Shown in pieces: positions 43,987-64,000 of a stretch of DNA of 64,000 nt. The position numbers and the translations under genes were made by a program. The first letter of the stretch is position 1. Each line of letters begins with the position of its first letter. The notes beneath the pieces were generated by a model. The model was given only the letters and a program-made list of their open reading frames with translations. It was not told the DNA's origin and ran no database searches. Origin of the DNA: a virus; IMG/VR virus record IMGVR_UViG_3300037485_001872, positions 32,001-96,000 of that record; one strand, given 5' to 3'.

Positions 43987-46900
43987 TAGATACCTCCTGT
44001 TTTATCAATAGTATTTATGTTATTATCTAAGGCTTCTTTTTTAAGTTTTTCCTTTTCTAATTTAGATGGTTTTTGAACTGAAATTAAAACTTCACTATTT
44101 AACATACGATAGAAGGAAGTCTTCTCCCTAACCGCATCTGCGTTTCGTAAGTCCATATAGTGTTTGTAATACGTATTTCTCAATAATAGTCTAGCAACTT
44201 TAGGATAACCCTCCCATGTGCCAGAAGTTACAGGGTCAGAAGTCCAATCTTTCACTGTAAATAGTTGAGACATTGTATTACCAGCCATAATAGGTGATTT
44301 TATAATATCTATAACATTCAAGAATCCTGTTGGAGCCTGTGATGAACCAACTTCCGAAGTAGTTCTAAAGTAAATAAATGAAAGGTATTGGATAGCCCAG
44401 TTGTGTTTATTCTTGTCATCATCCGCAGCGGCCATCACTAACATTCCTAGCATCGTTAAAATAGTGAATGCGGCAACATCTAAAGCAATTAATTTCAAAT
44501 TGGCTTGTTCTGTCTTAGATAGACTTCTATAGTTAGACTTAATAGACGAAATAGCCTTTGTAAGCCCATCTTTATAGGCTAATGAGGTTAAGTCAGAGAT
44601 GAAGTGCTTAAATGTAATATAATGACCTTCTTCTTCAATTCCTTGGCGTAAATTTAAGTGCTTTCTCTTAAACCTTTTTTGAACTCCTAATGTAAACCAA
44701 TCCTTGAAGTTTGTAAAGAATTGCATCATAAAGTGTCGACTTGCTGCACTCTTATCGTCAGCTGAGGTTTTAGAATCTATTGTATTATTAGTAGAAATTA
44801 TTTTACTCTGTACACGACTTAATAAAGCATCTGCATATTCTTTACCTATAGCATTTTCTGTGGCTTCACTTAGTTGCATAATTCCCTCTCTATTTTCTAA
44901 TAGATTGTACAAGGAATCTTTACGAAGTGTGTTCCACTTAAATAATAAAGCCTTACTATCAATATTTGCATTATCTGCTCTAAGCTTAAACTCCTCGTAT
45001 GTTAAGAACTTATCACCAACAAGTCTAAAATCATCTAAAACACTAAGCATTACAATATTTGCGTGTGGGGTTGCCGCCATTTCCATAAATGCATATGGAC
45101 TGTCATTTAATGAACGCAATATTCTATTATACCCAGCACTCTTAGTCTTAGTAGCAATTTCATGCACTCCAAAGGTTTCACCTAGTTTGTACAATTTATT
45201 TTGTTTGTTAACCTTTCCTATCTCTGTAGTGTATTCTGGTAATAACTTAGATAGTTCTCCCCCAGCCCATCTACTTGAGTTAGTATTGATATATAAACCG
45301 ACACGGTTGTAAATAGCAAGTTGAATGTTAGATACTAAAGCAGAGGTGATGGCAATTGTTGGAGAAAATCCTAATGCCGCTTTCTTAATCAAATTATTAA
45401 AATGTACGGCCATTCTTGATACATCCACTTCCTTACCATTTTGTAATGTTATGGATGACTTCGCTGAGAGCCTTCTACCGTAGAAATATGCATCCATGGC
45501 TTCTCTATATGCTTCCGCTACATTGGTGGACGCTGGAGCCTTCCCTTTGTCAAATTTAGAGTTTAATAACTTATTCTGTATTACAGAAACATCGGCAATA
45601 GAGTTAATACGTTGTTCGAAGGTATTTGCTGCATTTTGTAATACGGCATAAGAATATATGAAATCATTTGAAACATCCTCCATATCATCCAAATCTCTTA
45701 AATAGTATTTTGGAATAATACGTATGTCTGTATCCTGTCCTTCCACTTGCTCTCCATAATCCTTTTCGTCCTCTCTATTATAGATGACATCTTTTACGCT
45801 ATTTTTAATAGCATCCCAACTTGCATTTTGAATACGTTCATATTTACCTCTTCTAACCTGTGGAATCTTGTTAATATTTCTTCCCTCTTCCTCATACTTA
45901 ATGTGAGCATCTTTGGTTACGGCCTTTAATTTTTGAAGCATTGTAAATTCTTCTAAATTAGTTGTGGCTTGCCCATTAGCATCAGGATTAAATCTACGGA
46001 AGTATTCATCATTTCTCCACTTACTGATTTTTGGTTGTTTAAATCCAAATTCAGAATCGGTTTTATAATCTGGGTTACGTAAATCTTCTCCCTCTTCCAC
46101 CCATTCAAATCTAGTTGAAATAGCCAGGTTATGTAAAATATTAGTTGGAGCATAAGCTGTTGCTTTAGCTGCTTCTAAATCATCCAATAATTTAGTGGTG
46201 GAATAGGTTCCGTCTTTTAGGTTTATTAAAAGCGCATCATATCCCATAGGAGCAAATCTCTTGAAGTAGCTAGTTACACGTTCTCTACTGTAATCGGCCA
46301 CTAACTCTTCCATCCCTCTATTTGTTAAAAGACTTCTAACATCGTCTGAAGAATTCACCCCATATTTTCTATCAAAATAGTCTTCATATGCTTTAAGGTT
46401 TTCTCCCCCACGTTGTACATTTTTAAGAGCTGAAGTGAAACGTCTAACCCGTGATTTATTCTCTTCTGTCATATGTAGAAGAAGAAACTCGGATTCTGGT
46501 TTACCTGAGTCGGCTAAAGCTTTAGTATAAGCTTCGTTTGTTGTATTTTCTGAATAGGAGAAAGGGTCTTCAATCTTCTCTTCATACTTACTTAAAATTG
46601 TATTAACATCTAGGAATAGTTCTTGAATACGGTCTTCTTTTTCAATTATATTCTTCTTTGTTAATTCCCCCATTAAATCGTATTCAATCTCCGCTGGCGA
46701 GTTAGCCGAAGTGAATTGACGTAAGATTTCTTTTTTAGAATTAAGAAGCTCTTCCAACTCATCCATACTAGCCTTCATAGTTCTACTATGCTCAGGTGTT
46801 ATACGGCTATCATTAAGTCTTATTGCATCCACTCTATCTACCATTTTGGTAGTGTTAGCAGTTATTGCATTCCAATAAGCATCACTAAAGTTTAATCCAC

Positions 46901-49900
46901 CATTGGCCATTAAGAATTTGAATGCGGCCTGGGAACCATCTGTAGATTCAATATCTCTCACTGCTGAGAAAAACTCATTTTTTATAGTTTTCTTTTTAGC
47001 CTCCTGTACTTTAACAACTTCGCTCGGTCTAAGTTCAGAGAAATTTTTAGAGAATAAACTTTGTGCCACCTTATTATTCATTTTAGTTTGCACAATTTCA
47101 TCCAGCTTTCTAAGTTGATTTGCAATCTCTAAATCCACTCCTGTTTTTTCCTCACCTGTTTCCGCATTGAAGAAACTTTTACGAGCTTTTCTGTCAGATA
47201 CAATTCTACTTAAATTATATTGGTCTTCCTCTTCAATTTTAGAATAATCCACTGAACCAGAAACACGATATTTTTCTAGTATTTCTGCTTTACGGGAAGC
47301 TAAATTAGCTAGGAACACTCTTAATTCATTTCCAACACCTGCTTCTGTATATAGATTTTCTTTATCTTGATAGTACTTAGCAACCATTGGTCTTTCAAGG
47401 TTTTCTTCATACCAATCATTTTTTGCTTTCAGAAATTTGTCTAATCCCTCATCGGTTAAGTCTGTTTCTACTGGGTATCGTTTTGCTTTTGCAATTTCTT
47501 CTTTTTTCTCATCGGTTAAATTAGCTTCATAAGCATCCTCAATCATTTTCTTTTCTGCATTGTCGAAGTCTTGGCTTCTAATAACAGAAATTAAATAATT
47601 GGACACTGAGGATTCTCTTAAACTTTTGAAACGAGTTATGTTCCAATTGTTTTTCTCAGCATAAGCTATAAGAGGGTTGATAATTTTTAATGTAGCTAGG
47701 TTAGCTAACATATTATTATTGGCAACAATCTTACCTAATAAATTTAAGAAAATATTTGGAGCATGTTCTAGCTGTCCAAAAACCTTTTGTAGAACATTAA
47801 CATCTCTTTGTACGGCATCAAAAGAAGCTTTAATATTCTCCTTAGTTACTACACCACTCTCTGTAGAAGAATCTGGAAGGTTAAGTCCCATTAATGTTCT
47901 ATCTACTATTTGCTCAACATCCTTATTTTCTTGTAAGTATGCTTCCCCCTGGATTCTATGTATCTCAATAGTTTGTTGTTCTAGTTGAGCTACAAGTTTA
48001 TCCTTATTTACATTTGGTTGATTTGGGAAGGTTTTAAATAAAGCAATAAGTCTATCTAACTGTGGAAGGGCTACAGTTGTTAAATATCTGTATTGTGATT
48101 GGTCTCCAAAGTTAAAAGCGGCTCCTGGGGTTTTTTTGTAAATACGAAGCTTGTTACTTAAATTGGTAATCTGTGCTTCATTCATACTAGCTATAACTTG
48201 AACAGCATGAAATTCATCCACTTCATTTAAAGAATTATTTAGAGCCTCTAATTTAACCTCCTCTGTTAAAGTATCATCAGCAAAAGCTTTGTTAAGTGTG
48301 GCTGTATTGGTTCCTATTTTTGCTATCGCTGCATTTAACCTACGAATATCTGATTTTAACGTCTGTGCGCCACTATCTTTAAGCTTTTGTAGAATACGTT
48401 GGTTACTTTGGATGTGTTGCTTCGCAACTTCTAATTCACCTAATAAACGTCTACGTGTTACATCTAATGTATTCACTACAGTGTTATTTACACTATATAG
48501 CACTAATGAACTTTGCTTTAATACATTTCTATCTAGAAACTCAGAATCCTCATTTAAAGCTATCCTTGTAGCCATATCCATATACTCCTGAAGAGCTGTT
48601 CTATGTCCTACATTTAAATGAGCTTGTATTCTATTAATGAAGGAGTTGATAATAGCAATTAACTTTTGAAATAAGGAGGGGTTCCCTGCTGTGTTAGCAA
48701 ATCCCTCTAGAATATTATTTAAAAGAATTTTTCCTAGGATTTCACGTCTAACGGCTTCCTCAAGTTCTTCTCCCTCATACAACTCAGAATACTTTTGATA
48801 GTACTCACCACTAAAAGTTTCCCATTCAGGTGTATTTTCAATTTCTTTTAATAAGTCACGGATTTCTTGTTGGTTTGGGTGCGCTTCTATTATTATATGC
48901 GCCACTTCTTCTGTTAAGTCTTGTAATGTAGCATTATCTGAAAGAGCTACAACACCATTAGCTAAATCTACTAAAGCATTTACCGATAGGTCAGTGCCTG
49001 TACGTACTTTATATTTGGCCGTATATTCTGTAATACTCACTACAGAAATTCCCATTTTATTAAGTAGGCCAAGTAATTTAGATTTTAGTAAATCCTGCTC
49101 CTGTTTTGAAATAGGAACTCCTTTAAATGGTGTGGACTTTTGATATGACAGGTTAAATAAAACATCATGCACCCCGTCTAAATCTGCATCAATTTTCCCT
49201 TTTTCTAAATCAGAGATTGACACTTGTTTAACCCCACCATCTTTGGTTGGTATTTCAATAACACTTTCATCTTTTTGATTAAGGGTGAATGTACCATCAT
49301 TAGAGAGTGTCATTCCTTCTCTACCTAAGTCGGCCAGAGCTTCATCAGAAAGGATGGCGGCACTAACAATTGAGTTTATAGCAAGTTCTCCCTTACCAGC
49401 TAATTTGAACTCTCCATTTGGCATTTGCTTCTTGTTAGGAGCTATTAAACCTTGGCGTAAGTATTTATTTATAAATCCACTAATTGACTTAGGATTACTA
49501 TTACTGTCAATAGCGGCCACCTTTAAAAAGCTGTCAGGATTTTCTAACTTGTATTGGTTATTCATCACCACTAAATCAGCAGTGGCTATATCGAATACAT
49601 CTGGGTTAGTTGTAATCATTATATCGTCTGTAGATATAAATCCCATTTCAATGCTACCAATATTTGTGTTATTTAAAGCATCTGCAAAATTAGTGAACAC
49701 TTTACCCTCTGGGGTACGATAGAATAGCTTAGGTTCTCCCCCTTTGTTTACTAGGGGATTTGCTTTTCCACTGATTTTAACCTTTGGATTTTTTATAACC
49801 ACCTGGGTTTCTCTTTTTCCTGCGGCATCAAAAGTACTTAGGAATACAACATCTGCTTTGGCTGCATTTATCTCAGTTGTTTCATTTTGTCTAGCTACAG

Positions 49901-52900
49901 AGAATGGTACATTAGTTTCTACCCTCACTGTCTCTACTTTTGGTGAATCTACTAGGTAGAAATCTACACCACTTCCTCTATCATACTCTTTGGCCATTTC
50001 ATAAGTTGTGGCCGCAAAAATACCCTCTACATCTGGGTGAGCATTAACTCCTGTCTTTCCATCTATTCCCTTAAAGTAAAGAGAAGGTGATTTCATTTTA
50101 GCCGCTGTAGATAGTATTAAGGCTTTTGCTGTAGGGTGTAATTTTTCTACAGGAACATTTTCTAGTTGTTTTTCAATATCTTCATTGGTAGATGGGGTTG
50201 TCCAATCTCCAAAGAATTTCTTAAATTTCTCTGAGAATACATTTTGGAAAATACCATTAGCATCTTCATTACTTTGGATGTGTGGGTTGGCAGCTATTTC
50301 TGAGAATAGTTCTGAAGCTACTTGAGGAGTTGGAGCTATTTTATTAGCATCAATCATATCCTCCACTGTTTTGTACATTTTCTTGAAATATTCAGCATGG
50401 AGTTGAGGATTAGAATGAAAAGATTTTTCTAACATATTTTCATTTCTATCTGCCTCCACTGTAACATTCATCATATCATCAAGGGCTGTTCCTTCATATA
50501 CGGCAAGATTATATATATTGGCGTGAGAAATAACATCAGCATTATCTTTTAAGAATTTAATTGTGTTCTCATACGTTGCTGCTGTTTCTTTTTCAAAACC
50601 AATGATTAAATTTGGAATAAATTTCATTCCATTTTTTCTAATAATTTGAACGGCTTCTGCATTTAATCTTTCAGAGTTTGGTTTACTCATACCACGCATT
50701 ACAGAGTCGTTATTAGACTCTACACCAATTTCTACTAAAGCTATACCAGCTTTTTGCCAAAATCCTGGATTACTATCAATCTTTTTAACAGTGGCTGAGG
50801 TAGTTTGGATAATGAACCCTTTAAATCCTGGTTGTTGCTCCTTAACTCTTTGGTAAACATCTTCCAAATAAGTATAATTATCTGCCTGGCCAAATGTTTT
50901 ATCATCTAAGTAGATGTATTTAGCATTTAATTTTGAAATATTTTCAACTTGCTCATCAATATTCTCCTTTGTTATTTTTTCAATCTTCTTAACAACAGTA
51001 CAGAAAGCACAATTAAATAAACATCCTTCTGACATTTTTAGACGAGGAATAATTTCCATCCCTTTGAAAACATCATACTTATATCCATCTTTAAAATCAT
51101 ATCCAGCTTCTAACACCCCGTCTTCCATTGTATCAAAAGTAGAAGCATTTGTAGTGTTAAATTTACTTGAAAGATTAGGAATATAACCTCCTAACATGAA
51201 GTTTATTGATGGGTTGTCTTTTACAAGTGTTTGAGCTGTAGATAAATTGGCATCTAATACAGAAAGCATTACCTTTTTATACCCTGCTTGTTGAATAAAG
51301 TTAAGGGTTTCCTCTGGGTCACGCATTACATACATGTCCATATCTTTCCCTACACTATTATTAACAGCTGCTATCCAGAATGGAACCTCCATAAAGTCAA
51401 CGCTTCTATCATACCCCTCCACTTTAGAATACACCTTATCAAAATAATCATCAAAGATTTGTCCTTGTTCTGTAACATTTCCTTCACGTTGTCTATCCAA
51501 TATGTATTGTGAGCTAACTTGAATAGTTAATACCTTATCGGCATTATCTTTTGAAGGATTTTGGTTTACATAAATATTCTTTTGATTTAAACCATCATGT
51601 GCTGCTAATGCTTCTGTATATGTAGGAAACCCTTTAGTATCTTTAAATGTAGATGATGGTGTTAATGATGTATTTTTTTCAAAACTAGAAAGTCCTTCAA
51701 TTTTAAAATTAGGACGGGTGGTTTCTTTCGAAAAATATGTGTTTGCTTCTTGTAATTTTTCTCTTACATTATCCCCACGGAACGTATTGAAATAAGCTAT
51801 TTCTTGTTGCATTGCTTTTACATCACCATTCACCACTGCTAATGCTAATTGACGAGCATGCTCTTGCGCAATTGACATTACAGGTTGTGCTTCATAAGCG
51901 GCTCTAAACAAGTCAAGGCGGTCTTGATTCATTGAAGATACTTGTGCATAACTATCTATTGGAGAAAGTCTATCTGAGGTAATTTTTCCTAAGAAATCTT
52001 CTATCTTATTTATCTTTTCAAATATATAAGACGGGTCTAAAAATGTATTTTTGTATTTTGCAAGTTCTCTTAATACATCTCCTGCATTCTCTATTTTATA
52101 TTTCCAAACATTTCCACCCTCTCCTTTAAAAGACACTTCTAAAAGTCTTTCTGCATTAGCATCTTGGTGGTCATATACATCAACTTCTTGTGGGGCTAAA
52201 TATTGAAAGTATTCTCCTTTAAGTATAGCTCCTGTAGAACGAGAAATAAATTCTCCTAAAGGCATGTTCGCTAATTCTTCTGATGAAGCATCTTTAAGTC
52301 CAAATTGCTTGGCCACCCATTCATAAATTGTAGAAAGCCAATCTTTTAGTTGTTGTAGGAAGCCTTTATCATTTGATAAATTGTCAAGTTCTTTTGCTCC
52401 ATACTTTCCAATTAAGTTAGCTCTCACCTCATCCACAAGTCTTTCAAGATGTTGCTCAGGAGATTCCTCTGCTGCCCTAGCATAAACAGGGTTGTTTAAA
52501 TCCATTCCTGTTGCTGTTGCTAAGTCACTAAGTTGGGTTTGTGAGTTTCTTACAACAAATTGTGTCATAATGTTATGTACATCAGTGTATTCCTTCTTTA
52601 ATTCTGTATAAGAAATATTAGATAGGTCTACCCCTGCAAATTTATGGTTTAAAATATCGGCCACTAATCTGGCTTCTACTTCCCCAAATAATAAAGAATA
52701 ATTTAAGTATTTGGCATCTGTCTTATTTGTATTAAAGAAGTAATCTAATTCATATTGTGCAGCACTTAAAATATTACTTTCATTTACTGAAGGAGAGTTA
52801 TTTTTTAGATAAATAGCAATAGCATCTCGTACTTCTCCTAATTTATTAGAAGAATTTCCTATTATTTTTTTGGCTTCGTTAAATATTGTATCACTATTTC

Positions 52901-55900
52901 CTCCTCTTGGAAAATTCTCTATTTCCTGAATAGCATGACTTACTTCATGTATAAGAGTTAAAGCATAATATTTACTCCCATTAAGGTCGCCAGACTCGAT
53001 ATTGTTGATGATATTTCGAACCTCTCCTCCGTTGTTCCCAACTCCTGATTCTCCAATATTTTGCTCTCGGCTACTAATACGAATAAGTCCATTAGAGTAA
53101 GACCCGTTAGCTGTGTCAGCTTCTGATTTTTTGTAGAAATGTACATTTATATTTTTTAATTGTGGATATAATGTGAATAAACTAGTGTTTTCTAATACTT
53201 GGTCTAGGGTGTATTCTTTCCCTGGAGATGTATCTAGTCCTTTTTTAATATTAAACTCTTGTAATAGTTCATTAGAGAAATATTTCCATTGGCCTTCCTC
53301 TTTAAACCATCCTGTTTTATTTTCTATCTGTTGTGGGGAAGCTCCTTGAATTTCTAACTCCTTTGCCTGATTAAATAAAGAATTTAGCACGTTTAGGTTT
53401 TTTGCTCCTTGCTCTCCTACTATTTGAAAAAGAGGAATATTGTGTTTACCTCCTAATACCTCTAATAGAATAAGTTGTTGTTCTCTCACAACATCCTCTG
53501 TTTTACTAAGTAATCTGTTTCTTCTAGCTTCGGGTGTAAAAATATTTCTATAAGTTACGTTACGAGCCTCTACTTCTCCTGCTAATTTTTGATATAAATT
53601 ATATGGGGAAAACTCTGAAATTCTATCTCTAATAGGATTTAAATATTCATCTAAAGCATAAAGAACATCCATATAATCCTCTCTAGCTGCAATTTCCATC
53701 TTAATACGTAGTCTTTCAGGAAGATTATCCCACTCTTCTTCTATTTGTTTTGCTAACTCTTCGGATATTACTAAATCCTCTTTAATTAAAAAATCAGCCT
53801 TAAAGATTTTGTTTAGTTTTTTTTCTGTAATATCATCTAATAGTTCCACTATATAAGACATTTCCCTTAATACGTTCTCCTGTACTCTTAGATTTTCAAT
53901 CTCATTTAGTTGTTCCTTGGTAAATATTTTATTTAAATTTTCTAATACTATTTCTGTGTTTCCACCTTTTGCAAAAAATTCTATAAATTGAATAGCATGT
54001 TGAAGCTCATGTATTAAATCTCCAAATATGAGTCTTTCTTCTTTAACATTTATTTCAATTGAGTTTGTTTCGGGGATATACCATGAATTATTTCTTACAC
54101 GTGGGTCTATAGATATGGTGACTTTCATATCTTTTAGTTGTGGGTATGCTTTAAATAGTTCTGAATTGTTTAACACTTGACTAAGTGTATACTCTCCATT
54201 AGTGCTTATTTTTAGGGTTCCATCTGCAATTTCATACTTCCACTTTCCTTCTACCCCCTTTTCCCAACCTGTAGCTAAAAGGATTTCTTTAGGTGTCTTA
54301 CCTAATTCTTCTAATTTTTGTGCCACACTTAGATTCTCTAACACGGCTGTAGCATTTTCTAGTCCTTTAGCCCCCTTTTCTCCTATAATTTGAAAAAGAG
54401 GAATACCTTGCTTTACCTCATTTTGTAGTTCTGGGGTGATGTCTATTTTATAAATAGATGGACTAATTGAATTTAATTCTTCCACTATCTTAGTAGCTTC
54501 ATCTTTAGTATATTCTATGTCTTTTCCATTTTTATTATTCCATTCCCTAGCAATACCATTCCATATAGAAAAATTACCATTTGGTTTTTCCTCTATATAT
54601 GATGCTGCAAGTAGTGCATTATCGTCTTCAAACTTAGTAGTGGTTGGGGTTTGTTTAAAAACACTCTTAGCGACCTCCCCAACAGTGCCTAATGTTCCTT
54701 TAACAGGATTTCCGTAAAAGGCATTCATCCCTTCTCTACGTGGCATAGAAACACCTGATTCCTCAGTTTGCATTCTATTCCATAACCTGTCAATTAATTT
54801 TTGTTTTTGTGCCTCGTTACGTTCTCTACTTAACACTTTATCAACAACTGCTGCAAGTTGTTCTTTAGTTTTAACTACAACATTATTAGCAGAAAGCATT
54901 AAATTATCAACATCTGTATTTTCAAATGCTGTTCCTCCCACTTGTTCTTTGATATTAATACTCCACCCCTCTAAAGGAGTGTATTTTGGTTTATCATTTA
55001 TTGATGAATACTGGGCTCTCTCTTCAGGAGTTAATTTATCCTCCCATCCATTTCCATATTTGTTATAAAGGTCATTAACTAAAGTTTGTCTTTCTTCATT
55101 CCTTTCTTTGTTTCTTTCTGTAGCTTTTTGCCATTGGATTTTTTCACTTCCCCAACGTTCAAATTGTTGTTCACCATTTGTCCAAGAAATACTATCAACA
55201 CCTTGTTTTACGGCTTCCTTTAAAGCAACTTTAAAGGCAAGTTTCACCCATTGTGGGGTACTTGTTATGAAAGGAGCTGTTGGTATTTTTGATTTAATGT
55301 TAAAATTATTATCAAATAAAGCATTGTAATCCTCCTTATTTTGATTAAAATTTAATATGGCTTCGCTATTAACATTTAATTGTCTTTCATATGCAATTAT
55401 TTCTGCCTTTATGAGTGTATCAGCAAATGCTTGTCTAGATGTATGATTAAAAAAGTGTGCATCATCTTTTCTATTATTAAAATCCAACATTTTTTCGTCA
55501 TGTCTTTGTTGAATCATCTCTAATCTAGTAGCAAGTGAGGTTTCAGAAAGTACTTTTATTCTATCTTCTGTTGCACTACTATTTAAATATTCAGATAGGT
55601 TTATTAATTTTGCATATTCCTTTTGACTATCTTCCCATCTAGTACGAATTTCTGATAGTTGTTCGGGGGATAATGCTGCTTTATCTGCTGTTATATTTTG
55701 AGCATTATATTTCTGACCCCAATCGCTCTGAAGCTCTTCGAGAAATAACGTAGATGCACCATTTATATCTGTACGGGTATCCATACGTAAATGTACTAAT
55801 ACGTTGGGTTCATCCCAATGTGCTGAAGAGAAGTTTTTTGATTTTGAAATATCTGTTCCTATGTCCTCTAAATATTTATTATACTCTTCTTCAACTCTCT

Positions 55901-58900
55901 CTGGACTCCCAAATAATATACCATTATTATTAGAGGCTACCATAAATTCATTTCGAGTCATTGGGGCTTGTTTTGGAAGCACCACTAATATTTCCCTATA
56001 ATTCTGTCTGGCTCCTTTTTCAGTATGTGCTCCCCACTTTACTTCTTTTTGTTCCTTAAAATACTCTGTAATTTGGTCTTTTGCTTCTGTGAGTGTTTCT
56101 GGATACAATCGCATATCCAATTTCATTCCCCCTGGTTTATAAACATGGAAATCCTTATCCCCTCTTTTTTCAATTCTCCACCCTGCATTTTTAAATTCAA
56201 CAATATTTCCTATAGGAGATGTTCGTTCACTTCTTACCCAAGCTTCAGTGTCTAATTCATTACCTGATATTTTAGCATCAAGTTCTTCCAGTTTTTTATA
56301 AATATCACCAAATTCTTGTTGGTATGTAGCCTCCATTTCTTCTCCTGCCTCTCTTAGGTCTTCTCCTAATTGTGCATATCCACTTTGAGAATAACTTCCA
56401 GTCCACTCATCCATTTCCCTTCGTATTCTTGTAACTTTTTCTTGTATTGCCTCTGCCGCTGGAGATACTCTATCCCTTATTTGTTGTTGCAGAGCTGCTT
56501 TTTGCTTATTGAATTCTTCTGCTTCTTTTAGTGTTAAACTACCCTTCACAACCTCAACCACCTGTACACGATTGTCCTTTAAGAATTGTTGTATTTCGGC
56601 TTTTGTAACACTTCTATTTTGTTCTTTCAACCAGGCGTTTAACCCAACCCATTCTGCTTCTGACCCTTTTCCAAATTTATCCAACCATTGTTTTGCTGGA
56701 ATTTTTTCCACCTTACTTTCAGAAATTAGTTTTTCTAATGGTGAATAAAAACCATTAACTACTTCTGCCGCAATTGGGCGTACTTCTGTCGGTACTCCTC
56801 CAATATTCATGGTGATAGTACTACCTACAGCTTCTGCATATTTTTCATCTAAAGCATTTTGCCATTGTTGGGCTATTGGTGTTAATAATTCATTCCCTCT
56901 TTCTAAAATAGCTTGTGCTTGTTTATTTCCATCTTTTGCTGCTTCTTTTAATAGGGCTTGGTGAAGATGCGCCACCTCATGAAGCGTAGTTTCATTAGAT
57001 AGTTTTTCAGGATTTAAATAAATCTTTCCGTCAAAATACATTCCATAAACAACCCCTACTGGAGTTTTTAATTCATATGTATCAAACTTTCTATCAAAGT
57101 TTAACTTAGTTACTACAGGAATACCCATAGCTTCTGCTTGTGCTTTTAGCTTATTAAAAACAGACGGCTCCATCTTAGTAGCATCTAGTTGTATACTTTT
57201 AATATACACCAAAGTATTCTCAATTCCTGCGTCTCCTCCTATTTTAAGTTCCTGTTCTCCTATAAAGGTTCCTATTTCTTCACTACCTTTTTCAATTTTA
57301 GTATTTTCTTTTAACTTTTGTAAGTCTAAATCAATTCTAACTCCTCCATCTGCAAATGTTACAGGAGACCCATCAGGTAGATACCAACGAGTAGTGGTAA
57401 GTTCTGGATGGTCAAATTGGTCAGAGGTAGTTGTAGATACTCCTGGATACTCTCCTTCATCTCCTACGATGATATTACTGTCAAGTATTGAAGCTAAATT
57501 CTTAGTTGTAGTGTAATGGTAAGTAGTGGGTGCATTAATATCTCCCTCAAGACCATATGGATTATCTTGAACATTTAATAGCTTATGAAAAGCCATTTGC
57601 TCTGTTCTAAGTGGTTTTGCAAACTCTCCTTTTCCAGGTTCCACTTGGTCATATGTAAGTTCTTTATTTTGCCATCTATCATAAAGCTTATTTTGTTCCC
57701 TTGTAAAATTCTCATCTACAACATTTCTTAAATCAATTAAATCTGATGGTGATAATTTTACTCCTTGTTTTAAAGCATCAATGTATTGTCTAAAATTTTC
57801 TAAAGTGATGCGTTCTCCTCCAAAAGTTGAGGGGGCATTAAATTTTAGTTGCTCTTTAATAGTGATGGCTTTATCATCAAATACAACGTAATTGCGTTCT
57901 TTAGAAATATTATCTGTAACTCCTGTTCCTAAACTATCAGGTGGGTATTGTATTCCATCAATTCCAGCTCTTAATAAAAATTCTGAGGCAGCTTTTGCTG
58001 AACCATCAAGACCTCTAAATTGTTTTTGTAGTTCTGAATATATTTCTGCGGCTGTATATTGAGGAGAAGCTAAACCTGATGTATTAATTCCTTCTTTTTT
58101 CCCTTGTTTTGCTATCTTTGCAGCTTGTGTTGGGGTTAGTTTTTGATACCAATCTAAGAAGTCATATTGGTCTGGTGTTTTTCCTTCATGTAACGCCACT
58201 TTATAAACCACCCCAGAATTTGTTAATTTTGTCTTTATAGTTTCATTTAACAATGTTTGGGCTTCATCAATGGCTTTCTGTTGATACTCAACATCATTTC
58301 CATATTCTAATTCCTTTTGAGAGTCCTTAATAAAATCACGGATGATATTTTTTATTTCTTCTTTAACAGATGCATTTTTATTAAATTCATTTTTTAAATC
58401 TATTTCTGCTATTGTAAGCTCATCTACAAGTCTTCTTTGAGTTTCATTTTTGGCATTTTTATATCCAACTACAACACCTTTTTCATAGATTTTCCACTTT
58501 CCAATAGAAATATCCTGAATCTCAGTGTCGGCCATTTCCTTTGCATAATTGTCTGCAATATTTTTAAGAGAAGTGAAATAAATTCCATGCCCAAATACGC
58601 TTCCACCTTGACCTTCTCCAACTTTTGACATATCAAAATTATCGAAAGTACGACCAGTACCATGAAATGCTTCCACCTGTGCTAGATAAGCTGAATGTTC
58701 CGCAATAATACGGTTCATCTCATTCACATCTGTAGAAATGACTTCATTCGGGGTGAACTTTTTGAAAAGGTCTTTGAAGTAGTTTATAAGTACCTCTGGA
58801 GAAGTTGATTCCGCTGTTGGTGTAGCTTGAAAACTAGGAATTTGTGCACTTAAATAGTTGTACACTTTACTAATAACACCTTTCTTGTCTCTTTTTATTA

Positions 58901-58910
58901 TGCAAGTCAT
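43986..58910 (-). CDS. Giant polyvalent protein (ADP-ribosyltransferase, zincin, LPD23-like and B12-radical SAM domains); probably virion-packaged
   Basis: 4974 aa; FHGT..F..F..GQG..FGHGIYFT; HEVAH, HELQH, HEVSH; TGW....G.WKY twice; CLFNCAFC. Confidence 0.8.
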   Translation of the reverse strand: MTCIIKRDKKGVISKVYNYLSAQIPSFQATPTAESTSPEVLINYFKDLFKKFTPNEVISTDVNEMNRIIAEHSAYLAQVEAFHGTGRTFDNFDMSKVGEGQGGSVFGHGIYFTSLKNIADNYAKEMADTEIQDISIGKWKIYEKGVVVGYKNAKNETQRRLVDELTIAEIDLKNEFNKNASVKEEIKNIIRDFIKDSQKELEYGNDVEYQQKAIDEAQTLLNETIKTKLTNSGVVYKVALHEGKTPDQYDFLDWYQKLTPTQAAKIAKQGKKEGINTSGLASPQYTAAEIYSELQKQFRGLDGSAKAASEFLLRAGIDGIQYPPDSLGTGVTDNISKERNYVVFDDKAITIKEQLKFNAPSTFGGERITLENFRQYIDALKQGVKLSPSDLIDLRNVVDENFTREQNKLYDRWQNKELTYDQVEPGKGEFAKPLRTEQMAFHKLLNVQDNPYGLEGDINAPTTYHYTTTKNLASILDSNIIVGDEGEYPGVSTTTSDQFDHPELTTTRWYLPDGSPVTFADGGVRIDLDLQKLKENTKIEKGSEEIGTFIGEQELKIGGDAGIENTLVYIKSIQLDATKMEPSVFNKLKAQAEAMGIPVVTKLNFDRKFDTYELKTPVGVVYGMYFDGKIYLNPEKLSNETTLHEVAHLHQALLKEAAKDGNKQAQAILERGNELLTPIAQQWQNALDEKYAEAVGSTITMNIGGVPTEVRPIAAEVVNGFYSPLEKLISESKVEKIPAKQWLDKFGKGSEAEWVGLNAWLKEQNRSVTKAEIQQFLKDNRVQVVEVVKGSLTLKEAEEFNKQKAALQQQIRDRVSPAAEAIQEKVTRIRREMDEWTGSYSQSGYAQLGEDLREAGEEMEATYQQEFGDIYKKLEELDAKISGNELDTEAWVRSERTSPIGNIVEFKNAGWRIEKRGDKDFHVYKPGGMKLDMRLYPETLTEAKDQITEYFKEQKEVKWGAHTEKGARQNYREILVVLPKQAPMTRNEFMVASNNNGILFGSPERVEEEYNKYLEDIGTDISKSKNFSSAHWDEPNVLVHLRMDTRTDINGASTLFLEELQSDWGQKYNAQNITADKAALSPEQLSEIRTRWEDSQKEYAKLINLSEYLNSSATEDRIKVLSETSLATRLEMIQQRHDEKMLDFNNRKDDAHFFNHTSRQAFADTLIKAEIIAYERQLNVNSEAILNFNQNKEDYNALFDNNFNIKSKIPTAPFITSTPQWVKLAFKVALKEAVKQGVDSISWTNGEQQFERWGSEKIQWQKATERNKERNEERQTLVNDLYNKYGNGWEDKLTPEERAQYSSINDKPKYTPLEGWSINIKEQVGGTAFENTDVDNLMLSANNVVVKTKEQLAAVVDKVLSRERNEAQKQKLIDRLWNRMQTEESGVSMPRREGMNAFYGNPVKGTLGTVGEVAKSVFKQTPTTTKFEDDNALLAASYIEEKPNGNFSIWNGIAREWNNKNGKDIEYTKDEATKIVEELNSISPSIYKIDITPELQNEVKQGIPLFQIIGEKGAKGLENATAVLENLSVAQKLEELGKTPKEILLATGWEKGVEGKWKYEIADGTLKISTNGEYTLSQVLNNSELFKAYPQLKDMKVTISIDPRVRNNSWYIPETNSIEINVKEERLIFGDLIHELQHAIQFIEFFAKGGNTEIVLENLNKIFTKEQLNEIENLRVQENVLREMSYIVELLDDITEKKLNKIFKADFLIKEDLVISEELAKQIEEEWDNLPERLRIKMEIAAREDYMDVLYALDEYLNPIRDRISEFSPYNLYQKLAGEVEARNVTYRNIFTPEARRNRLLSKTEDVVREQQLILLEVLGGKHNIPLFQIVGEQGAKNLNVLNSLFNQAKELEIQGASPQQIENKTGWFKEEGQWKYFSNELLQEFNIKKGLDTSPGKEYTLDQVLENTSLFTLYPQLKNINVHFYKKSEADTANGSYSNGLIRISSREQNIGESGVGNNGGEVRNIINNIESGDLNGSKYYALTLIHEVSHAIQEIENFPRGGNSDTIFNEAKKIIGNSSNKLGEVRDAIAIYLKNNSPSVNESNILSAAQYELDYFFNTNKTDAKYLNYSLLFGEVEARLVADILNHKFAGVDLSNISYTELKKEYTDVHNIMTQFVVRNSQTQLSDLATATGMDLNNPVYARAAEESPEQHLERLVDEVRANLIGKYGAKELDNLSNDKGFLQQLKDWLSTIYEWVAKQFGLKDASSEELANMPLGEFISRSTGAILKGEYFQYLAPQEVDVYDHQDANAERLLEVSFKGEGGNVWKYKIENAGDVLRELAKYKNTFLDPSYIFEKINKIEDFLGKITSDRLSPIDSYAQVSSMNQDRLDLFRAAYEAQPVMSIAQEHARQLALAVVNGDVKAMQQEIAYFNTFRGDNVREKLQEANTYFSKETTRPNFKIEGLSSFEKNTSLTPSSTFKDTKGFPTYTEALAAHDGLNQKNIYVNQNPSKDNADKVLTIQVSSQYILDRQREGNVTEQGQIFDDYFDKVYSKVEGYDRSVDFMEVPFWIAAVNNSVGKDMDMYVMRDPEETLNFIQQAGYKKVMLSVLDANLSTAQTLVKDNPSINFMLGGYIPNLSSKFNTTNASTFDTMEDGVLEAGYDFKDGYKYDVFKGMEIIPRLKMSEGCLFNCAFCTVVKKIEKITKENIDEQVENISKLNAKYIYLDDKTFGQADNYTYLEDVYQRVKEQQPGFKGFIIQTTSATVKKIDSNPGFWQKAGIALVEIGVESNNDSVMRGMSKPNSERLNAEAVQIIRKNGMKFIPNLIIGFEKETAATYENTIKFLKDNADVISHANIYNLAVYEGTALDDMMNVTVEADRNENMLEKSFHSNPQLHAEYFKKMYKTVEDMIDANKIAPTPQVASELFSEIAANPHIQSNEDANGIFQNVFSEKFKKFFGDWTTPSTNEDIEKQLENVPVEKLHPTAKALILSTAAKMKSPSLYFKGIDGKTGVNAHPDVEGIFAATTYEMAKEYDRGSGVDFYLVDSPKVETVRVETNVPFSVARQNETTEINAAKADVVFLSTFDAAGKRETQVVIKNPKVKISGKANPLVNKGGEPKLFYRTPEGKVFTNFADALNNTNIGSIEMGFISTDDIMITTNPDVFDIATADLVVMNNQYKLENPDSFLKVAAIDSNSNPKSISGFINKYLRQGLIAPNKKQMPNGEFKLAGKGELAINSIVSAAILSDEALADLGREGMTLSNDGTFTLNQKDESVIEIPTKDGGVKQVSISDLEKGKIDADLDGVHDVLFNLSYQKSTPFKGVPISKQEQDLLKSKLLGLLNKMGISVVSITEYTAKYKVRTGTDLSVNALVDLANGVVALSDNATLQDLTEEVAHIIIEAHPNQQEIRDLLKEIENTPEWETFSGEYYQKYSELYEGEELEEAVRREILGKILLNNILEGFANTAGNPSLFQKLIAIINSFINRIQAHLNVGHRTALQEYMDMATRIALNEDSEFLDRNVLKQSSLVLYSVNNTVVNTLDVTRRRLLGELEVAKQHIQSNQRILQKLKDSGAQTLKSDIRRLNAAIAKIGTNTATLNKAFADDTLTEEVKLEALNNSLNEVDEFHAVQVIASMNEAQITNLSNKLRIYKKTPGAAFNFGDQSQYRYLTTVALPQLDRLIALFKTFPNQPNVNKDKLVAQLEQQTIEIHRIQGEAYLQENKDVEQIVDRTLMGLNLPDSSTESGVVTKENIKASFDAVQRDVNVLQKVFGQLEHAPNIFLNLLGKIVANNNMLANLATLKIINPLIAYAEKNNWNITRFKSLRESSVSNYLISVIRSQDFDNAEKKMIEDAYEANLTDEKKEEIAKAKRYPVETDLTDEGLDKFLKAKNDWYEENLERPMVAKYYQDKENLYTEAGVGNELRVFLANLASRKAEILEKYRVSGSVDYSKIEEEDQYNLSRIVSDRKARKSFFNAETGEEKTGVDLEIANQLRKLDEIVQTKMNNKVAQSLFSKNFSELRPSEVVKVQEAKKKTIKNEFFSAVRDIESTDGSQAAFKFLMANGGLNFSDAYWNAITANTTKMVDRVDAIRLNDSRITPEHSRTMKASMDELEELLNSKKEILRQFTSANSPAEIEYDLMGELTKKNIIEKEDRIQELFLDVNTILSKYEEKIEDPFSYSENTTNEAYTKALADSGKPESEFLLLHMTEENKSRVRRFTSALKNVQRGGENLKAYEDYFDRKYGVNSSDDVRSLLTNRGMEELVADYSRERVTSYFKRFAPMGYDALLINLKDGTYSTTKLLDDLEAAKATAYAPTNILHNLAISTRFEWVEEGEDLRNPDYKTDSEFGFKQPKISKWRNDEYFRRFNPDANGQATTNLEEFTMLQKLKAVTKDAHIKYEEEGRNINKIPQVRRGKYERIQNASWDAIKNSVKDVIYNREDEKDYGEQVEGQDTDIRIIPKYYLRDLDDMEDVSNDFIYSYAVLQNAANTFEQRINSIADVSVIQNKLLNSKFDKGKAPASTNVAEAYREAMDAYFYGRRLSAKSSITLQNGKEVDVSRMAVHFNNLIKKAALGFSPTIAITSALVSNIQLAIYNRVGLYINTNSSRWAGGELSKLLPEYTTEIGKVNKQNKLYKLGETFGVHEIATKTKSAGYNRILRSLNDSPYAFMEMAATPHANIVMLSVLDDFRLVGDKFLTYEEFKLRADNANIDSKALLFKWNTLRKDSLYNLLENREGIMQLSEATENAIGKEYADALLSRVQSKIISTNNTIDSKTSADDKSAASRHFMMQFFTNFKDWFTLGVQKRFKRKHLNLRQGIEEEGHYITFKHFISDLTSLAYKDGLTKAISSIKSNYRSLSKTEQANLKLIALDVAAFTILTMLGMLVMAAADDDKNKHNWAIQYLSFIYFRTTSEVGSSQAPTGFLNVIDIIKSPIMAGNTMSQLFTVKDWTSDPVTSGTWEGYPKVARLLLRNTYYKHYMDLRNADAVREKTSFYRMLNSEVLISVQKPSKLEKEKLKKEALDNNINTIDKTGGI

Positions 58911-58917
58911 ATATTTT

Positions 58918-59244: not shown

Positions 59245-59255
59245 TATATTTTTTA

Positions 59256-59286
59256 CAAATATACGAAAATTTTATGAAAGTTCCTA
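59256..59286 (-). promoter_or_regulatory. Leftward promoter TAGGAA-N17-TATATTTG
   Basis: Same architecture and spacing as 196-226. Confidence 0.6.
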
Positions 59287-59303
59287 GATAATAAAAGTAA
59301 ATA

Positions 59304-61451: not shown

Positions 61452-61455
61452 ATTG

Positions 61456-64000
61456 TTATTTCTTTTTACGTGTTTTACATTTTTTACTCAACTCTTCATT
61501 TGCGGCCTTAGTATTCTCTTGTGTTGGAGTTGACACTACATCGGGAGCTACATCTACAATTGATGGTTTCATTTTTCCAATGTAGTCCATTGAAAGTCCT
61601 CCAAAAATAGGAATTGTTTTGTCTATGTTCATGAATTTATCTAGAACGTCTTTAGAGTTCACAAATCCTCCTATGGTGTTTTCTCCTTCTGAGCTTCTAA
61701 TTATTATAGTGGCATTTAGTTTTGCTGTTTTCTTGATTTGCTCGAAAATAGCTTCTTTTTGTTCCACTGTAACTCCCGCTTCTAAACTAACTATTATAGT
61801 GTCGTGAGATGAATAATCATAATCTTCCCCTCTGGCTGTCACTAAATTAACTTTAGAACCCACTGCATCTAGAACTTTTTGTCCTAAAGCATTAGCTTCC
61901 TGTGAAATATCTACACCAGTTACTTTATGTTGTTTTTTCTCAATTAGTATTGGAGAAAGTGGAATGGCTCCTGAACCTATAAATACAACATTACCTTTCA
62001 TAAAACGGGTTTCTTTTTGTAAAGTTTCTACATAGTCAGCATAATATTCAAAATCTTCTAGTGTTTTAGTTCCCGCAATTATTTCATTTGCAAAAGCTAC
62101 TTCTCTATCATAGTCTTCTTGGTTTAGGTTTTGTAATAATTGGGGTGTTTCTTTGAGGGATTGTTCTACTGCCTTAACTTTCTTAAAAGCCAATATCTTT
62201 TTGCGACCTAATTCAACGTGTGATGCCATTCTATGTTGTCCATCATGGAAAAATCCGCTATAAATTACAGGTGGCAATTCTTCCCCTCTTTTTAATAGTT
62301 TCACCATATCATTGACTCTATCCATGTGTTCTAAATCACCATCGTAATCATCAACTAATTTATCTTTGTCGATTTTAGTATTGACAGAAACATAAGTTAA
62401 TTCATATTGACCACTAAATTTATTAGAGCTGTTATCAGCATAAGCCCCCATTCTGTCGTATATTTTAGTCAAATCTTCCGCAGAAACAACTTCACCTAAT
62501 TTAATGCCACCCCATTCGCTTCTAATATCTTCCTTCACATCTCCTACACCAACACCAACACTACCTGCTTGGGGTGTTTCTTTGAGGGATTGTTCTAAAA
62601 TTACATCAACTTGTTCACCTCCGACTACAAGTGTAGCTACTTTTTTACCATAAAAAGGAGATGACTTATCTGTTCCTTCACGAATTTCAGTAACTCTTAC
62701 TGGAATATTTTCCTTTCCTTGTGATTCTTTTATTGCTTGTATTAACTCTAATGCACTTTCATTTTCTTCGGATTTTAAATCTATGCCTAAATTTTCTACT
62801 GCTTCTTCAAACGTGTTAAAACCCTTATCATTTTGTTCTCTACTCTCTCCTTGTTTATTTGTAGTTTGTGTTTTAAATTTAGTTGTTTTTACACCATTTT
62901 TTTCTGTTGTAGTTACAACCACCTTAACCATTTTACCCGAGCCATCATTTACAGTTTTATATGGTTTTTCCAATTTACTTCCCACATCTCCCCCTACACC
63001 AACACTACCTACTTCTTCTTCGGTTTTACCTTGTTCTTTGGGTAACAGTAAATCTTCTACAGTTTTTACTAATTCAGGATTAGTGTCGTCTAATTTTGCT
63101 TTGTGGTATGCTTCCGAAACATCTCTTGCAGATTTATATTCATCTCCAAATTTATCTTGAAAATCATCAAACCAAGCAATATCTAAATTACCTAATGCAG
63201 TCCCTGTACTTTCAATATCTTTTAATGTATTATTAGATACCTCATTTGTAGTAGCATCTTCTCCCCCTACACCTACACTCCCTGCTTTTGGTAAAGCTGT
63301 TGCTTGACTTTTTGGGGCTTCAAGTAAAGGTGTAGCTTGACTTTTTAGTTGAGAAAGTATAGATAATTCGTTGCTGTACTTAGTAATTTCATCAAATGCT
63401 CTTTTGGGTTGTTCAAGTAATAATGTAAGTGTATCTCCTAAGTTATTTGTACCTCTTAACCAACCTATATAAGTACCTTTATCTAAATTTTCAGTAAATT
63501 TGGGAATACCTACCACCTCTGCAAAATAATCTAATATAATTTGAGTTGCTGTAGTTCTTGTATTAACTTGGGAATCAGGTAGTGAATTTCTTCTTATATC
63601 TACATCGGATACTTTTACTTCTTGGGTAGGGACTACTGGTTGAGCTTCTTCATCCACTCCTTCAAATAGTTCCACCTCCTCATTCGGCTCCCCAAAATCT
63701 AGTACAACCTTTGGTGAATGAAAAACATCCCCACGTAAATCTAAATGTATACTTGCATTTTCAATTAAAGTTTGTTCCATATCTGTTTCTGGTAAAAGCC
63801 AGTCCGACAAAGATACGAATTTATTTACATTAGACAATAAAGATTTTATTTTATCAATCTTTGCTTTATTAAGGTTTCCTGAAGTGATTTGTAGGGGCTG
63901 AACATCAATACCATTTCTCATTAATAAGAGATTTAGATTAGATGCTTTTTCAGCCTCTTCCACTTGTGTATTCATAATAGCATCCACTTCTCCTGAAACA
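61456..64000 (-). CDS. C-terminal part of a large modular protein with ParB/Srx-like and nicotianamine-synthase-like domains
   Basis: Frame open to window edge; LPPVI..DGQHR; FEYYADY..FIGSGAIPLS..VD..K.AIF..IIIRSSEG. Confidence 0.75.
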   Translation of the reverse strand, partial: VSGEVDAIMNTQVEEAEKASNLNLLLMRNGIDVQPLQITSGNLNKAKIDKIKSLLSNVNKFVSLSDWLLPETDMEQTLIENASIHLDLRGDVFHSPKVVLDFGEPNEEVELFEGVDEEAQPVVPTQEVKVSDVDIRRNSLPDSQVNTRTTATQIILDYFAEVVGIPKFTENLDKGTYIGWLRGTNNLGDTLTLLLEQPKRAFDEITKYSNELSILSQLKSQATPLLEAPKSQATALPKAGSVGVGGEDATTNEVSNNTLKDIESTGTALGNLDIAWFDDFQDKFGDEYKSARDVSEAYHKAKLDDTNPELVKTVEDLLLPKEQGKTEEEVGSVGVGGDVGSKLEKPYKTVNDGSGKMVKVVVTTTEKNGVKTTKFKTQTTNKQGESREQNDKGFNTFEEAVENLGIDLKSEENESALELIQAIKESQGKENIPVRVTEIREGTDKSSPFYGKKVATLVVGGEQVDVILEQSLKETPQAGSVGVGVGDVKEDIRSEWGGIKLGEVVSAEDLTKIYDRMGAYADNSSNKFSGQYELTYVSVNTKIDKDKLVDDYDGDLEHMDRVNDMVKLLKRGEELPPVIYSGFFHDGQHRMASHVELGRKKILAFKKVKAVEQSLKETPQLLQNLNQEDYDREVAFANEIIAGTKTLEDFEYYADYVETLQKETRFMKGNVVFIGSGAIPLSPILIEKKQHKVTGVDISQEANALGQKVLDAVGSKVNLVTARGEDYDYSSHDTIIVSLEAGVTVEQKEAIFEQIKKTAKLNATIIIRSSEGENTIGGFVNSKDVLDKFMNIDKTIPIFGGLSMDYIGKMKPSIVDVAPDVVSTPTQENTKAANEELSKKCKTRKKK
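62140..62597. repeat. 29-bp perfect direct repeat pair
   Basis: TTGGGGTGTTTCTTTGAGGGATTGTTCTA at 62140-62168 and 62569-62597; offset 429 bp = 143 codons. Confidence 0.9.

Follow-up and report, generated by a model that had tools for sequence, protein, structure and literature searches.

We describe a predicted enzymatic domain encoded in a 64,000-nucleotide stretch of viral DNA (hereinafter, the window), which comprises bases 32001-96000 of the 134,122-bp linear IMG/VR virus record IMGVR_UViG_3300037485_001872 (estimated completeness 88%). The domain is located near the C-terminus of a 2354-amino-acid (aa) protein encoded on the minus strand. It appears to be a genuine and apparently active, N-terminally shortened member of the nicotianamine synthase (NAS)/CntL family of S-adenosylmethionine (SAM)-dependent enzymes, which forms the last enzymatic module of a virion protein of an uncultured crAss-like phage and would transfer an aminocarboxypropyl group to an amine acceptor; we assign this reading, taken as a whole, a probability of roughly 55%. 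We refer to this shortened NAS-like domain as mini-NAS.

The window contains the last 847 codons of the respective open reading frame (ORF), which extends upstream past the window end; the full ORF (L002:1457-8521, minus strand) encodes 2354 aa, and an identical protein is present, as P0003, in the representative protein set. The mini-NAS domain corresponds to residues 2132-2319 of the protein, that is, residues 42-229 of its last 264 aa; residue numbers given below, such as E50, count within this 264-aa segment. The domain and its immediate surroundings in the window are as follows:

61456..64000, minus strand: window part of the ORF, the last 847 codons and the stop codon, an open frame without internal stops
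61564..62127, minus strand: mini-NAS domain, delineated by the Pfam family PF03059, an AlphaFold2 (AF2) model and the top fold match
61459..61563, minus strand: 35-aa basic C-terminal tail with a lysine/arginine-rich end (from the translation), modeled as a low-confidence helix with a predicted local distance difference test score (pLDDT) of 53-65

The first-pass annotation of this DNA, which was made from the letters, proposed a nicotianamine-synthase-like domain at 61570-62120, at the C-terminal end of a phage cargo-type protein. This range corresponds to residues 44-227 of the last 264 aa and hence takes in nearly all of the folded domain (modeled by AF2 as residues 42-229), and the five sequence strings on which the annotation drew were all found in the minus-strand translation, where they span 61684-62061:

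62032-62061, minus strand: LEDFEYYADY
61945-61989, minus strand: VVFIGSGAIPLSPIL
61903-61914, minus strand: VDIS
61774-61797, minus strand: IIVSLEAG, followed by KEAIF at 61744-61758
61684-61707, minus strand: IIIRSSEG

Comparison with profiles and with proteins of known structure links the domain to the NAS family. In a Pfam hmmscan of the window part of the protein, the NAS profile PF03059 reached 42.1 bits (E 8.8e-11), which exceeds the curated cut-off of 27.1; the score was 45.2 bits for the domain cut out alone and 40.7 bits within the full protein, and the match spans only positions 50-235 of the 276 profile positions. Because the curated cut-off is passed, the observation is real and not a chance match to motifs. 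The generic methyltransferase models Methyltransf_25, Methyltransf_11 and Methyltransf_12 all stayed under their Pfam cut-offs on the window protein. A phmmer search of all PDB sequences with the last 264 aa as the query yielded 9 hits at E<=1, among which chains of the thermonicotianamine synthase of Methanothermobacter thermautotrophicus (MtNAS; 3FPE, 3O31 and 3FPG) had E-values of 5.5e-8 to 6.9e-8 and CntL one of about 4e-4; none of the 9 hits is to a chain named as a methyltransferase. A profile (A1) built from 23 sequences of the mini-NAS clade defined below retrieved from the PDB MtNAS at 2.5e-16, CntL at 3.9e-11 and, as the first ordinary methyltransferase, Rv0560c at 3.3e-5. The assignment to the NAS/CntL type of SAM-dependent enzymes that was put forward in the first-pass annotation thus withstands comparison with the NAS profile itself and with the PDB, where the only strong sequence hits are MtNAS and CntL.

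In MtNAS, the residues that deprotonate the nucleophilic acceptor amine are Glu81 and Tyr107 (PMC10491745), and the E77Q and Y106F mutants of the plant enzyme AtNAS1 are inactive (PMC10248798); the chemistry of the family uses up SAM and releases 5'-methylthioadenosine (MTA) (PMC10491745, PMC10248798). The residues of the mini-NAS domain that align with these catalytic positions, and those of the predicted SAM site, are encoded at the following positions, with conservation counted in 46 members of the mini-NAS clade versus 104 canonical hits, or in ungapped subsets where stated:

62101..62103, minus strand: Glu50 (E2140 of the full protein), the predicted catalytic base, which aligns with MtNAS Glu81 and with the CntL glutamate of the E84Q entry
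62032..62034, minus strand: Tyr73 (Y2163), the predicted second catalytic residue and the last Y of FEYYADY, which aligns with MtNAS Tyr107
61960..61977, minus strand: G92-S-G94-A-I-P97, a glycine-rich motif (GxGxxP) for SAM binding, placed by the model in the loop that follows strand 1 of the Rossmann fold
61909..61911, minus strand: Asp114, the acidic residue that ends strand 2 (110-114 in the model)
61774..61785, minus strand: L156-E157-A158-G159, the clade-specific LEAG motif after strand 4, recognized by its conservation in the clade
61756..61758, minus strand: Lys165, the conserved lysine of the NAS family (46/46 in the clade, 98/101 ungapped canonical hits)
61696..61698, minus strand: Arg185 of the IIIRSS motif, the conserved arginine of the NAS family (46/46 in the clade, 100/100 ungapped canonical hits)

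Glu50 is invariant in the clade (46/46) as well as in the canonical hits (86/86 ungapped), and its pairing with Glu81 is directly visible because the entry for the E81Q mutant of MtNAS departs from the wild type at exactly this column. Tyr73 is likewise invariant in 46/46 clade members, and so is E80, which aligns with MtNAS Glu114 in the profile alignment. The glycines and the proline of the SAM-binding motif, G92, G94 and P97, are each present in all 46 clade members and in 103/104 canonical hits. Position 114 is always acidic in the clade (D in 33 and E in 13 of the 46 sequences) and is D or E in 103/104 canonical hits; by analogy with other class I folds, Asp114 could be the usual contact of the SAM ribose. 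Altogether, E50, Y73, E80, G92, G94, P97, L156, K165 and R185 are invariant across the 46 sequences, and all of them except L156 are common to the canonical group. Two features are peculiar to the clade, namely, position 157, which is E in 43/46 clade members versus L in 61/80 ungapped canonical sequences, and a C-terminal F216-x-G218 (F-x-G hairpin) motif. Given that the clade members are only 26-53% identical to the window sequence, the invariance of the active site indicates that it is subject to purifying selection.

The AF2 model, which was built on alignment A1, has a mean pLDDT of 87.4, with values of 92-99 over residues 41-230, and displays the alternating strand-helix topology of a Rossmann domain of the class I methyltransferase type. 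In a Foldseek search with this model, ranks 1-4 are occupied by MtNAS chains (E 5.3e-13 to 2.2e-11; template modeling score 0.60-0.62), the first ordinary methyltransferase-fold protein appears at 4.4e-10, and CntL is found at ranks 11 and 20. VIA-align applied to the Foldseek list gave Z scores of 21.1-21.4 for MtNAS, 19.2 for PH0226, 18.1 for CntL and at most 17.2 for the other methyltransferases. A wide VIA search of 48,161 chains again placed MtNAS at the top (Z 21.1, root-mean-square deviation (rmsd) 5.6 A over 204 residues), with PH0226, an ordinary methyltransferase-fold protein, at Z 19.2 and rmsd 2.5 A over 174 residues. MtNAS, rather than an ordinary class I methyltransferase, is therefore the best match in all three fold searches, by a small margin, and most of the weight of the family assignment is borne by the sequence evidence. 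None of the matches listed in the three fold searches is an azetidine-carboxylate synthase, SAM lyase, spermidine synthase, Tyw2 or Tsr3, which does not exclude a relation to any of them. An Atlas search with the NAS-like domain yielded scores of at most 0.87, which we treat as leads only.

A full HMMER scan of 1.84 billion representative proteins detected 261 proteins at E<=1e-3, and we analyzed the best 150 of these 261, including the 2354-aa protein itself. The A1 profile splits these 150 sequences into 46 that match its entire length with 155 bits or more, again with the 2354-aa protein included, and 104 that score at most 126 bits; PF03059 is present at E<=1e-3 in 101 of the 104 non-clade sequences. 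In a maximum-likelihood tree of 146 domain rows (4 rows with domains under 150 aa were dropped), the 46 clade sequences, together with the low-scoring P0065, are located on one side of a branch with a Shimodaira-Hasegawa-like approximate likelihood ratio (SH-aLRT) support of 100. The clade lacks about 50 N-terminal residues of the NAS helical domain but retains the two helices that bear the catalytic Glu and Tyr: the catalytic Glu has a median position of 25 in the 24 stand-alone members of the clade versus 74 in 83 canonical proteins, and the respective median lengths are 208 and 265 aa. The complete N-terminal helical domain that closes the reaction chamber is accordingly absent, and we therefore class mini-NAS as a shortened variant rather than as a canonical NAS. 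Several stand-alone relatives start with a basic, PKMSAKKK-like N-terminus, which may be compared with the basic C-terminal tail of the window protein.

Nearly half of the clade members (22/46) are embedded in larger proteins, of 382-3842 aa, and the embedded forms are spread over several subclades of the tree. All 11 large clade proteins that were scanned with Pfam passed the NAS cut-off, and DUF7178 was detected in 6 of the 11. The domains found besides the NAS-like domain in these proteins include:

P0011: LPD22 and GGDEF
P0021: LPD38
P0020: an N-terminal SLT lytic transglycosylase
P0037: GNAT and DUF7178
P0013: DUF3293 and DUF7178
P0004: a second methyltransferase domain

Among viral contigs, alignment A3 identified one locus (L003), in which the NAS-like domain lies within a 2998-aa ORF; the single-domain query gave 15 pattern matches and alignment A2 gave 57 in these contigs, in both cases with 0 relatives. 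In genome contigs, A2 found no related locus and A3 found one, L053, in a Saccharibacteria metagenome-assembled genome, with nothing recognizable nearby. The metagenome scan yielded 45 loci, of which only L004-L008 match the clade over the full length, the rest appearing canonical. At L004:1609-3831, a stand-alone mini-NAS gene is directly followed by genes for a GT8 glycosyltransferase, a PIG-L-type deacetylase and a PcfJ-like protein, and at L005/L006 stand-alone mini-NAS genes are found near a gene for a TFIIB-like protein and one for a class II glutamine amidotransferase. A word-indexed search with the last 263 aa gave a single weak match, P0002, covering 13% of the query. In 50,697 phage records, there was no match to window positions 58000-64000 (megablast) or to the domain (tblastn), and a PHROGs search gave no family for the mini-NAS domain or for the two downstream ORFs. 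A full-text literature search, judged by titles and the openings of abstracts, found no work on a NAS-like phage enzyme, and the main text of the study on polyvalent proteins (PMC5512222) contains 0 occurrences of "nicotianamine" and 0 of "aminocarboxypropyl". As judged by these sequence comparisons, mini-NAS is a well-separated, shortened variant of the NAS family that is associated with mobile elements. The first-pass annotation picked up neither the shortening nor the recurrence of the clade in mobile elements, nor the long extension of the ORF past the window.

The carrier protein resembles virion components of crAss-like and related phages. Residues 32-868 match phrog_32390 (E 6.9e-93), and the genes next to it fall into PHROG families labeled "virion structural protein", "DNA transfer protein" and "tail spike". 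In tblastn searches, residues 52-1539 match the 1957-aa "structural protein" gp039 of Cellulophaga phage phi17:2 (26.8% identity, E 7e-58) and also gp38 of Cellulophaga phage phi4:1, and residues ~100-490 match "RNA-polymerase subunit" genes of crAss-like phages (E 1e-10 to 1e-16), including a 2310-aa gene of Kehishuvirus. In PhicrAss001, gp47 (262.5 kDa), gp49 and gp50 were detected in virions by mass spectrometry and are interpreted as cargo proteins, which would be extruded into the host in a partly unfolded state (PMC10172136). By homology and by its place in the block of virion genes, the 2354-aa protein thus belongs with the gp47-type cargo proteins, among which presence in virions is known, by mass spectrometry, only for the PhicrAss001 homologs; the description of the protein as phage cargo in the first-pass annotation agrees with its similarity to the phi17:2 and crAss-like gp47-type proteins and with its PHROG neighbors. 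The homology to phi17:2 and to the gp47-type genes, which is limited to the first ~1500 aa, places the phage near the phi4:1/phi17:2 group and, more distantly, near the crAss-like phages. No match to residues 1540-2354, the C-terminal 815 aa, was found in the phage collection, which implies that this lineage added the NAS-like module as an accessory. The ~1500-aa N-terminal part accordingly appears to be the conserved virion and ejection part of the protein, and the ~800-aa C-terminal part appears to consist of accessory modules strung on repeated linkers. Elsewhere in the same record, beyond the window, the block of virion genes includes a gene for an HNH endonuclease (phrog_1271, E 5.3e-30; L049:15927-16886), between a "DNA transfer protein" gene and a tail-spike-like gene.

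The repeated linkers, the adjacent module and a second giant protein encoded in the same gene block are located in the window as follows:

62140..62168: first copy of the linker repeat, a perfect 29-bp direct repeat encoding EQSLKETPQ, which directly precedes the NAS-like domain in the protein
62569..62597: second copy of the linker repeat, also encoding EQSLKETPQ, 429 bp from the first
62169..62568, minus strand: inter-linker module with a DGxHR motif (FHDGQHRM), recognized in the translation
43986..58910, minus strand: 4974-aa polyvalent-type protein, two genes downstream, with the Pfam domains LPD23 and Radical_SAM

The 29-bp repeat pair brackets one module of 143 codons, and a 27-nt repeat that encodes GSVGVGG is present in three copies with 81-100% identity (62544-62570, 62988-63014 and 63261-63287). 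These repeats delimit C-terminal modules as if the modules had been inserted as in-frame cassettes. The DGxHR motif of the inter-linker module is reminiscent of domains of the ParB/sulfiredoxin type; a ParB-like identity is an unconfirmed lead, with no Pfam match at E<=1 and no PDB sequence match, a single-sequence AF2 model at pLDDT 39.9, and a weak Atlas lead in the form of ParB_N on 18% of one cluster. In the 4974-aa protein, LPD23 (68 bits, 2 stretches) and Radical_SAM (39.9 bits, residues 2626-2787) are above the Pfam cut-offs, and ART-PolyVal (29.3 versus a cut-off of 31.2) and the DUF6782 metallopeptidase are under them. A second SAM-using enzyme, the Radical_SAM domain, is therefore present in this nearby giant protein of the virion block.

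Under the reading that we favor, the capsid would carry the 2354-aa protein, which would be ejected into the host during infection and refold there. The mini-NAS domain would then bind SAM via the Rossmann site with the GxGxxP motif, Glu50 and Tyr73 would deprotonate the acceptor amine in the manner of Glu81 and Tyr107 of MtNAS, and the amine would attack the gamma-carbon of SAM, with transfer of the 3-amino-3-carboxypropyl group and release of MTA. We infer the transfer reaction, the delivery into the host and the type of acceptor from the comparisons described above. In MtNAS, the helical lid buries the acceptor site; since most of this lid is lost in the clade and a second acidic residue, E157, has been gained, the acceptor is probably not the glutamate or histidine used by the metallophore enzymes. 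A larger or cationic amine of limited copy number seems more likely, either a host or phage macromolecule or a polyamine-like molecule, and a bulkier acceptor would be in keeping with the lost lid. Among the roles proposed for the domain, our best guess is that it modifies a specific acceptor.

More tentatively, mini-NAS could represent a previously undescribed class of injected effectors of phages and mobile elements that put the 3-amino-3-carboxypropyl group on a specific host or phage macromolecule or on a defense-related amine; this possibility should be regarded as less probable than not. The targets of such effectors could include DNA, a translation or defense protein, or a polyamine-like or signaling molecule, and the open active site and E157 would be adaptations in the shift from small amino-acid acceptors to the new target.

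Several observations weigh against the proposal that mini-NAS is an active aminocarboxypropyltransferase delivered with the virion. The transfer chemistry is predicted from homology, and this applies to the clade as a whole; the missing N-terminal part could change or abolish the canonical reaction. Mini-NAS does not qualify as a CntL ortholog, with 26.7 bits (29.5 bits for the isolated domain) for the CntL equivalog family NF033601 (NCBIfam), whose cut-off is 350. The structural margin over ordinary methyltransferases, as measured on the model, is small, about 2 Z units. Presence in virions is extrapolated from homologs at 24-27% identity, and for the C-terminal 815 aa, which have no match in the phage collection, packaging and survival of ejection are conjectural. 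No LPD domain was detected by Pfam in the 2354-aa protein, in which the NAS-like domain is the only recognized domain. Finally, the contexts of the stand-alone genes (L004, L005/L006 and L053) are heterogeneous and reveal no recurring partner gene.

Four other explanations deserve consideration. The domain might consume SAM without an external acceptor, or with an abundant metabolite such as glutamate, and in this way lower the SAM level of the host. In this scenario, SAM would be converted to MTA and a small product, such as azetidine-2-carboxylate or a homoserine-lactone-like compound, and the lowered SAM level would blunt SAM-dependent defenses such as type I restriction or BREX, an effect already raised in the first-pass annotation, as the SAM lyase of phage T3 does; this explanation seems unlikely to us. 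The consumption of SAM with release of MTA is indeed what NAS-family chemistry entails (PMC10491745, PMC10248798). A second SAM-using domain, radical SAM, is present in the nearby 4974-aa protein, and an MTA nucleosidase (PF01048) was not found in the phage record in a search with a control that was positive in 14/14 genomes. However, a cell contains on the order of 10^5 SAM molecules, and draining them would demand very high turnover from a few copies of the enzyme, a property for which NAS enzymes are not known. For each large cargo protein of PhicrAss001, the illustrative estimate is ~6 copies per virion (PMC10172136). Furthermore, the conserved Glu and Tyr that deprotonate the acceptor, along with the extra acidic residue E157, point to a bound amine acceptor, and neither azetidine-carboxylate synthases nor SAM lyases are among the matches listed in the fold searches. 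Because a handful of injected molecules would face ~10^5 turnovers, and because the acceptor-activating residues are strictly conserved with a further acidic residue added beside them, modification of a specific acceptor is favored over SAM depletion, and bulk drainage of SAM by a few injected copies is doubtful.

It is similarly improbable that the domain is an ordinary methyltransferase on a NAS-like scaffold, which would transfer a methyl group to DNA, RNA or protein and yield S-adenosylhomocysteine, like the known methylase modules of polyvalent proteins. The class I methyltransferase fold, with many methyltransferases at Z 15-19, is compatible with such an activity, as is the Methyltransf_25 score of 23.4-26.1 bits, which nears the cut-off of 27; DNA methylases are common among polyvalent modules (PMC5512222), and the loss of the N-terminal lid might have altered the chemistry. 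Nevertheless, no generic methyltransferase model is above its cut-off on the window protein, the gap in E-value between the clade and methyltransferases in sequence-profile comparisons exceeds 10 orders of magnitude, and the Glu and Tyr of NAS catalysis, along with the family Lys and Arg, are invariant in 46/46 members.

We consider it highly improbable that the protein is an auxiliary metabolic enzyme making a nicotianamine- or opine-type metallophore for phage enzymes, for example, the nearby Fe-S radical SAM domain. All characterized NAS/CntL enzymes make metal chelators (PMC10491745, PMC10248798), and a radical SAM domain with its Fe-S requirement is available in the nearby giant protein. 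On the other side, mini-NAS scores much too low for a CntL equivalog, the substrate chamber is incomplete in the clade, and the domain is fused to a virion protein, with relatives in giant polyvalent proteins rather than in metal-uptake operons. An opine dehydrogenase (PF10100, CntM) was also not found in the 134-kb record (88% complete), which is weak evidence because the control was silent (0/14 genomes). For these reasons, namely, that mini-NAS is not a CntL equivalog, that no opine dehydrogenase was detected (with the control silent) and that the domain keeps virion and polyvalent company, production of a metal chelator is unlikely and the least likely of the three roles suggested in the first-pass annotation. 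Modules in giant phage proteins can decay and activity is here a prediction, but a remnant that has lost catalysis, or is purely structural, and acts in the virion protein as a spacer or a binding module is hard to reconcile with the SAM-binding and catalytic positions, all preserved in the window sequence and unchanged throughout the 46 divergent members, and is very unlikely.

To our knowledge, the NAS-family enzymes described so far, from plants, fungi, archaea and a few bacteria, all synthesize metal chelators, and aminocarboxypropyl modification has not yet been implicated in phage-host conflict. Here, a shortened branch of the family that looks catalytically intact recurs in giant virion and polyvalent proteins and in small stand-alone viral and metagenomic genes. 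If mini-NAS is active, aminocarboxypropyl transfer, or another SAM reaction that releases MTA, would join the chemistries that phages bring along at entry; if the domain is indeed an injected effector, this would be a covalent modification new to phage-host conflict that uses host SAM at entry. An active mini-NAS domain would also be a defined, easily expressed unit of ~190 aa with which the target of such chemistry could be sought, and the 2354-aa protein exemplifies accessory enzymes that are strung onto conserved crAss-type cargo proteins via repeated linkers.

Among the known systems with which mini-NAS can be compared, the SAM lyase of phage T3 would be a functional analog, in that it destroys SAM and releases MTA, but its fold is unrelated and it is produced early instead of being carried in the virion; the searches of the mini-NAS domain, none of which was aimed at SAM lyase, revealed no relation to this enzyme in sequence or fold. 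Like the polyvalent proteins of Iyer, Burroughs, Anand, de Souza and Aravind (2017, PMC5512222), the 2354-aa protein is a giant multi-module protein, here encoded in a virion gene block. The relatives of mini-NAS are found with LPD22, LPD38, GGDEF, GNAT and SLT domains, and LPD23 is present in the nearby 4974-aa protein, whereas the 2354-aa protein itself has no LPD match. The gp47-type protein of PhicrAss001, gp039 of phi17:2 and gp38 of phi4:1 share with the 2354-aa protein the homologous N-terminal part and the same place among the virion genes, but contain no match to residues 1540-2354; phi17:2 and phi4:1, which are the nearest cultured phages identified, lack the mini-NAS module.

Within the NAS family, the plant and fungal enzymes (AtNAS1 and relatives) belong to the same Pfam family, and E77 and Y106 of AtNAS1 correspond to the conserved Glu and Tyr (PMC10248798). 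The plant enzymes join three aminocarboxypropyl units and form an azetidine ring, and are larger, with plant-specific motifs and C-terminal extensions, none of which is seen in the phage domain. CntL, the aminobutanoyltransferase of the staphylopine, pseudopaline and yersinopine pathways (7C7M, 7C9M, 8ZX0), belongs to the same family with an aligned catalytic Glu and performs a single aminocarboxypropyl transfer to an amine acceptor (PMC10491745). It differs in having Ile, in the profile alignment, at the position where the phage clade and MtNAS carry the catalytic Tyr; the partners CntM and CntK were not seen in the 134-kb record, a point of little weight given the silent PF10100 control. Compared with canonical NAS in general, the phage domain has LEAG in place of what is mostly A-L-(A/V)-G and the C-terminal F-x-G hairpin motif of the clade. 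The closest known relative by both sequence and fold is MtNAS (3FPE/3FPF/3FPG/3FPJ/3O31), which shares with the phage domain the Rossmann SAM site, the GxGxxP motif, the family Lys and Arg, and the residues Glu81, Tyr107 and Glu114, which align with E50, Y73 and E80. The identity between the two is 21-25%, the phage domain is without roughly the first 50 positions of the NAS profile and, whereas MtNAS is a free cytoplasmic enzyme, the phage domain is fused to a virion protein.

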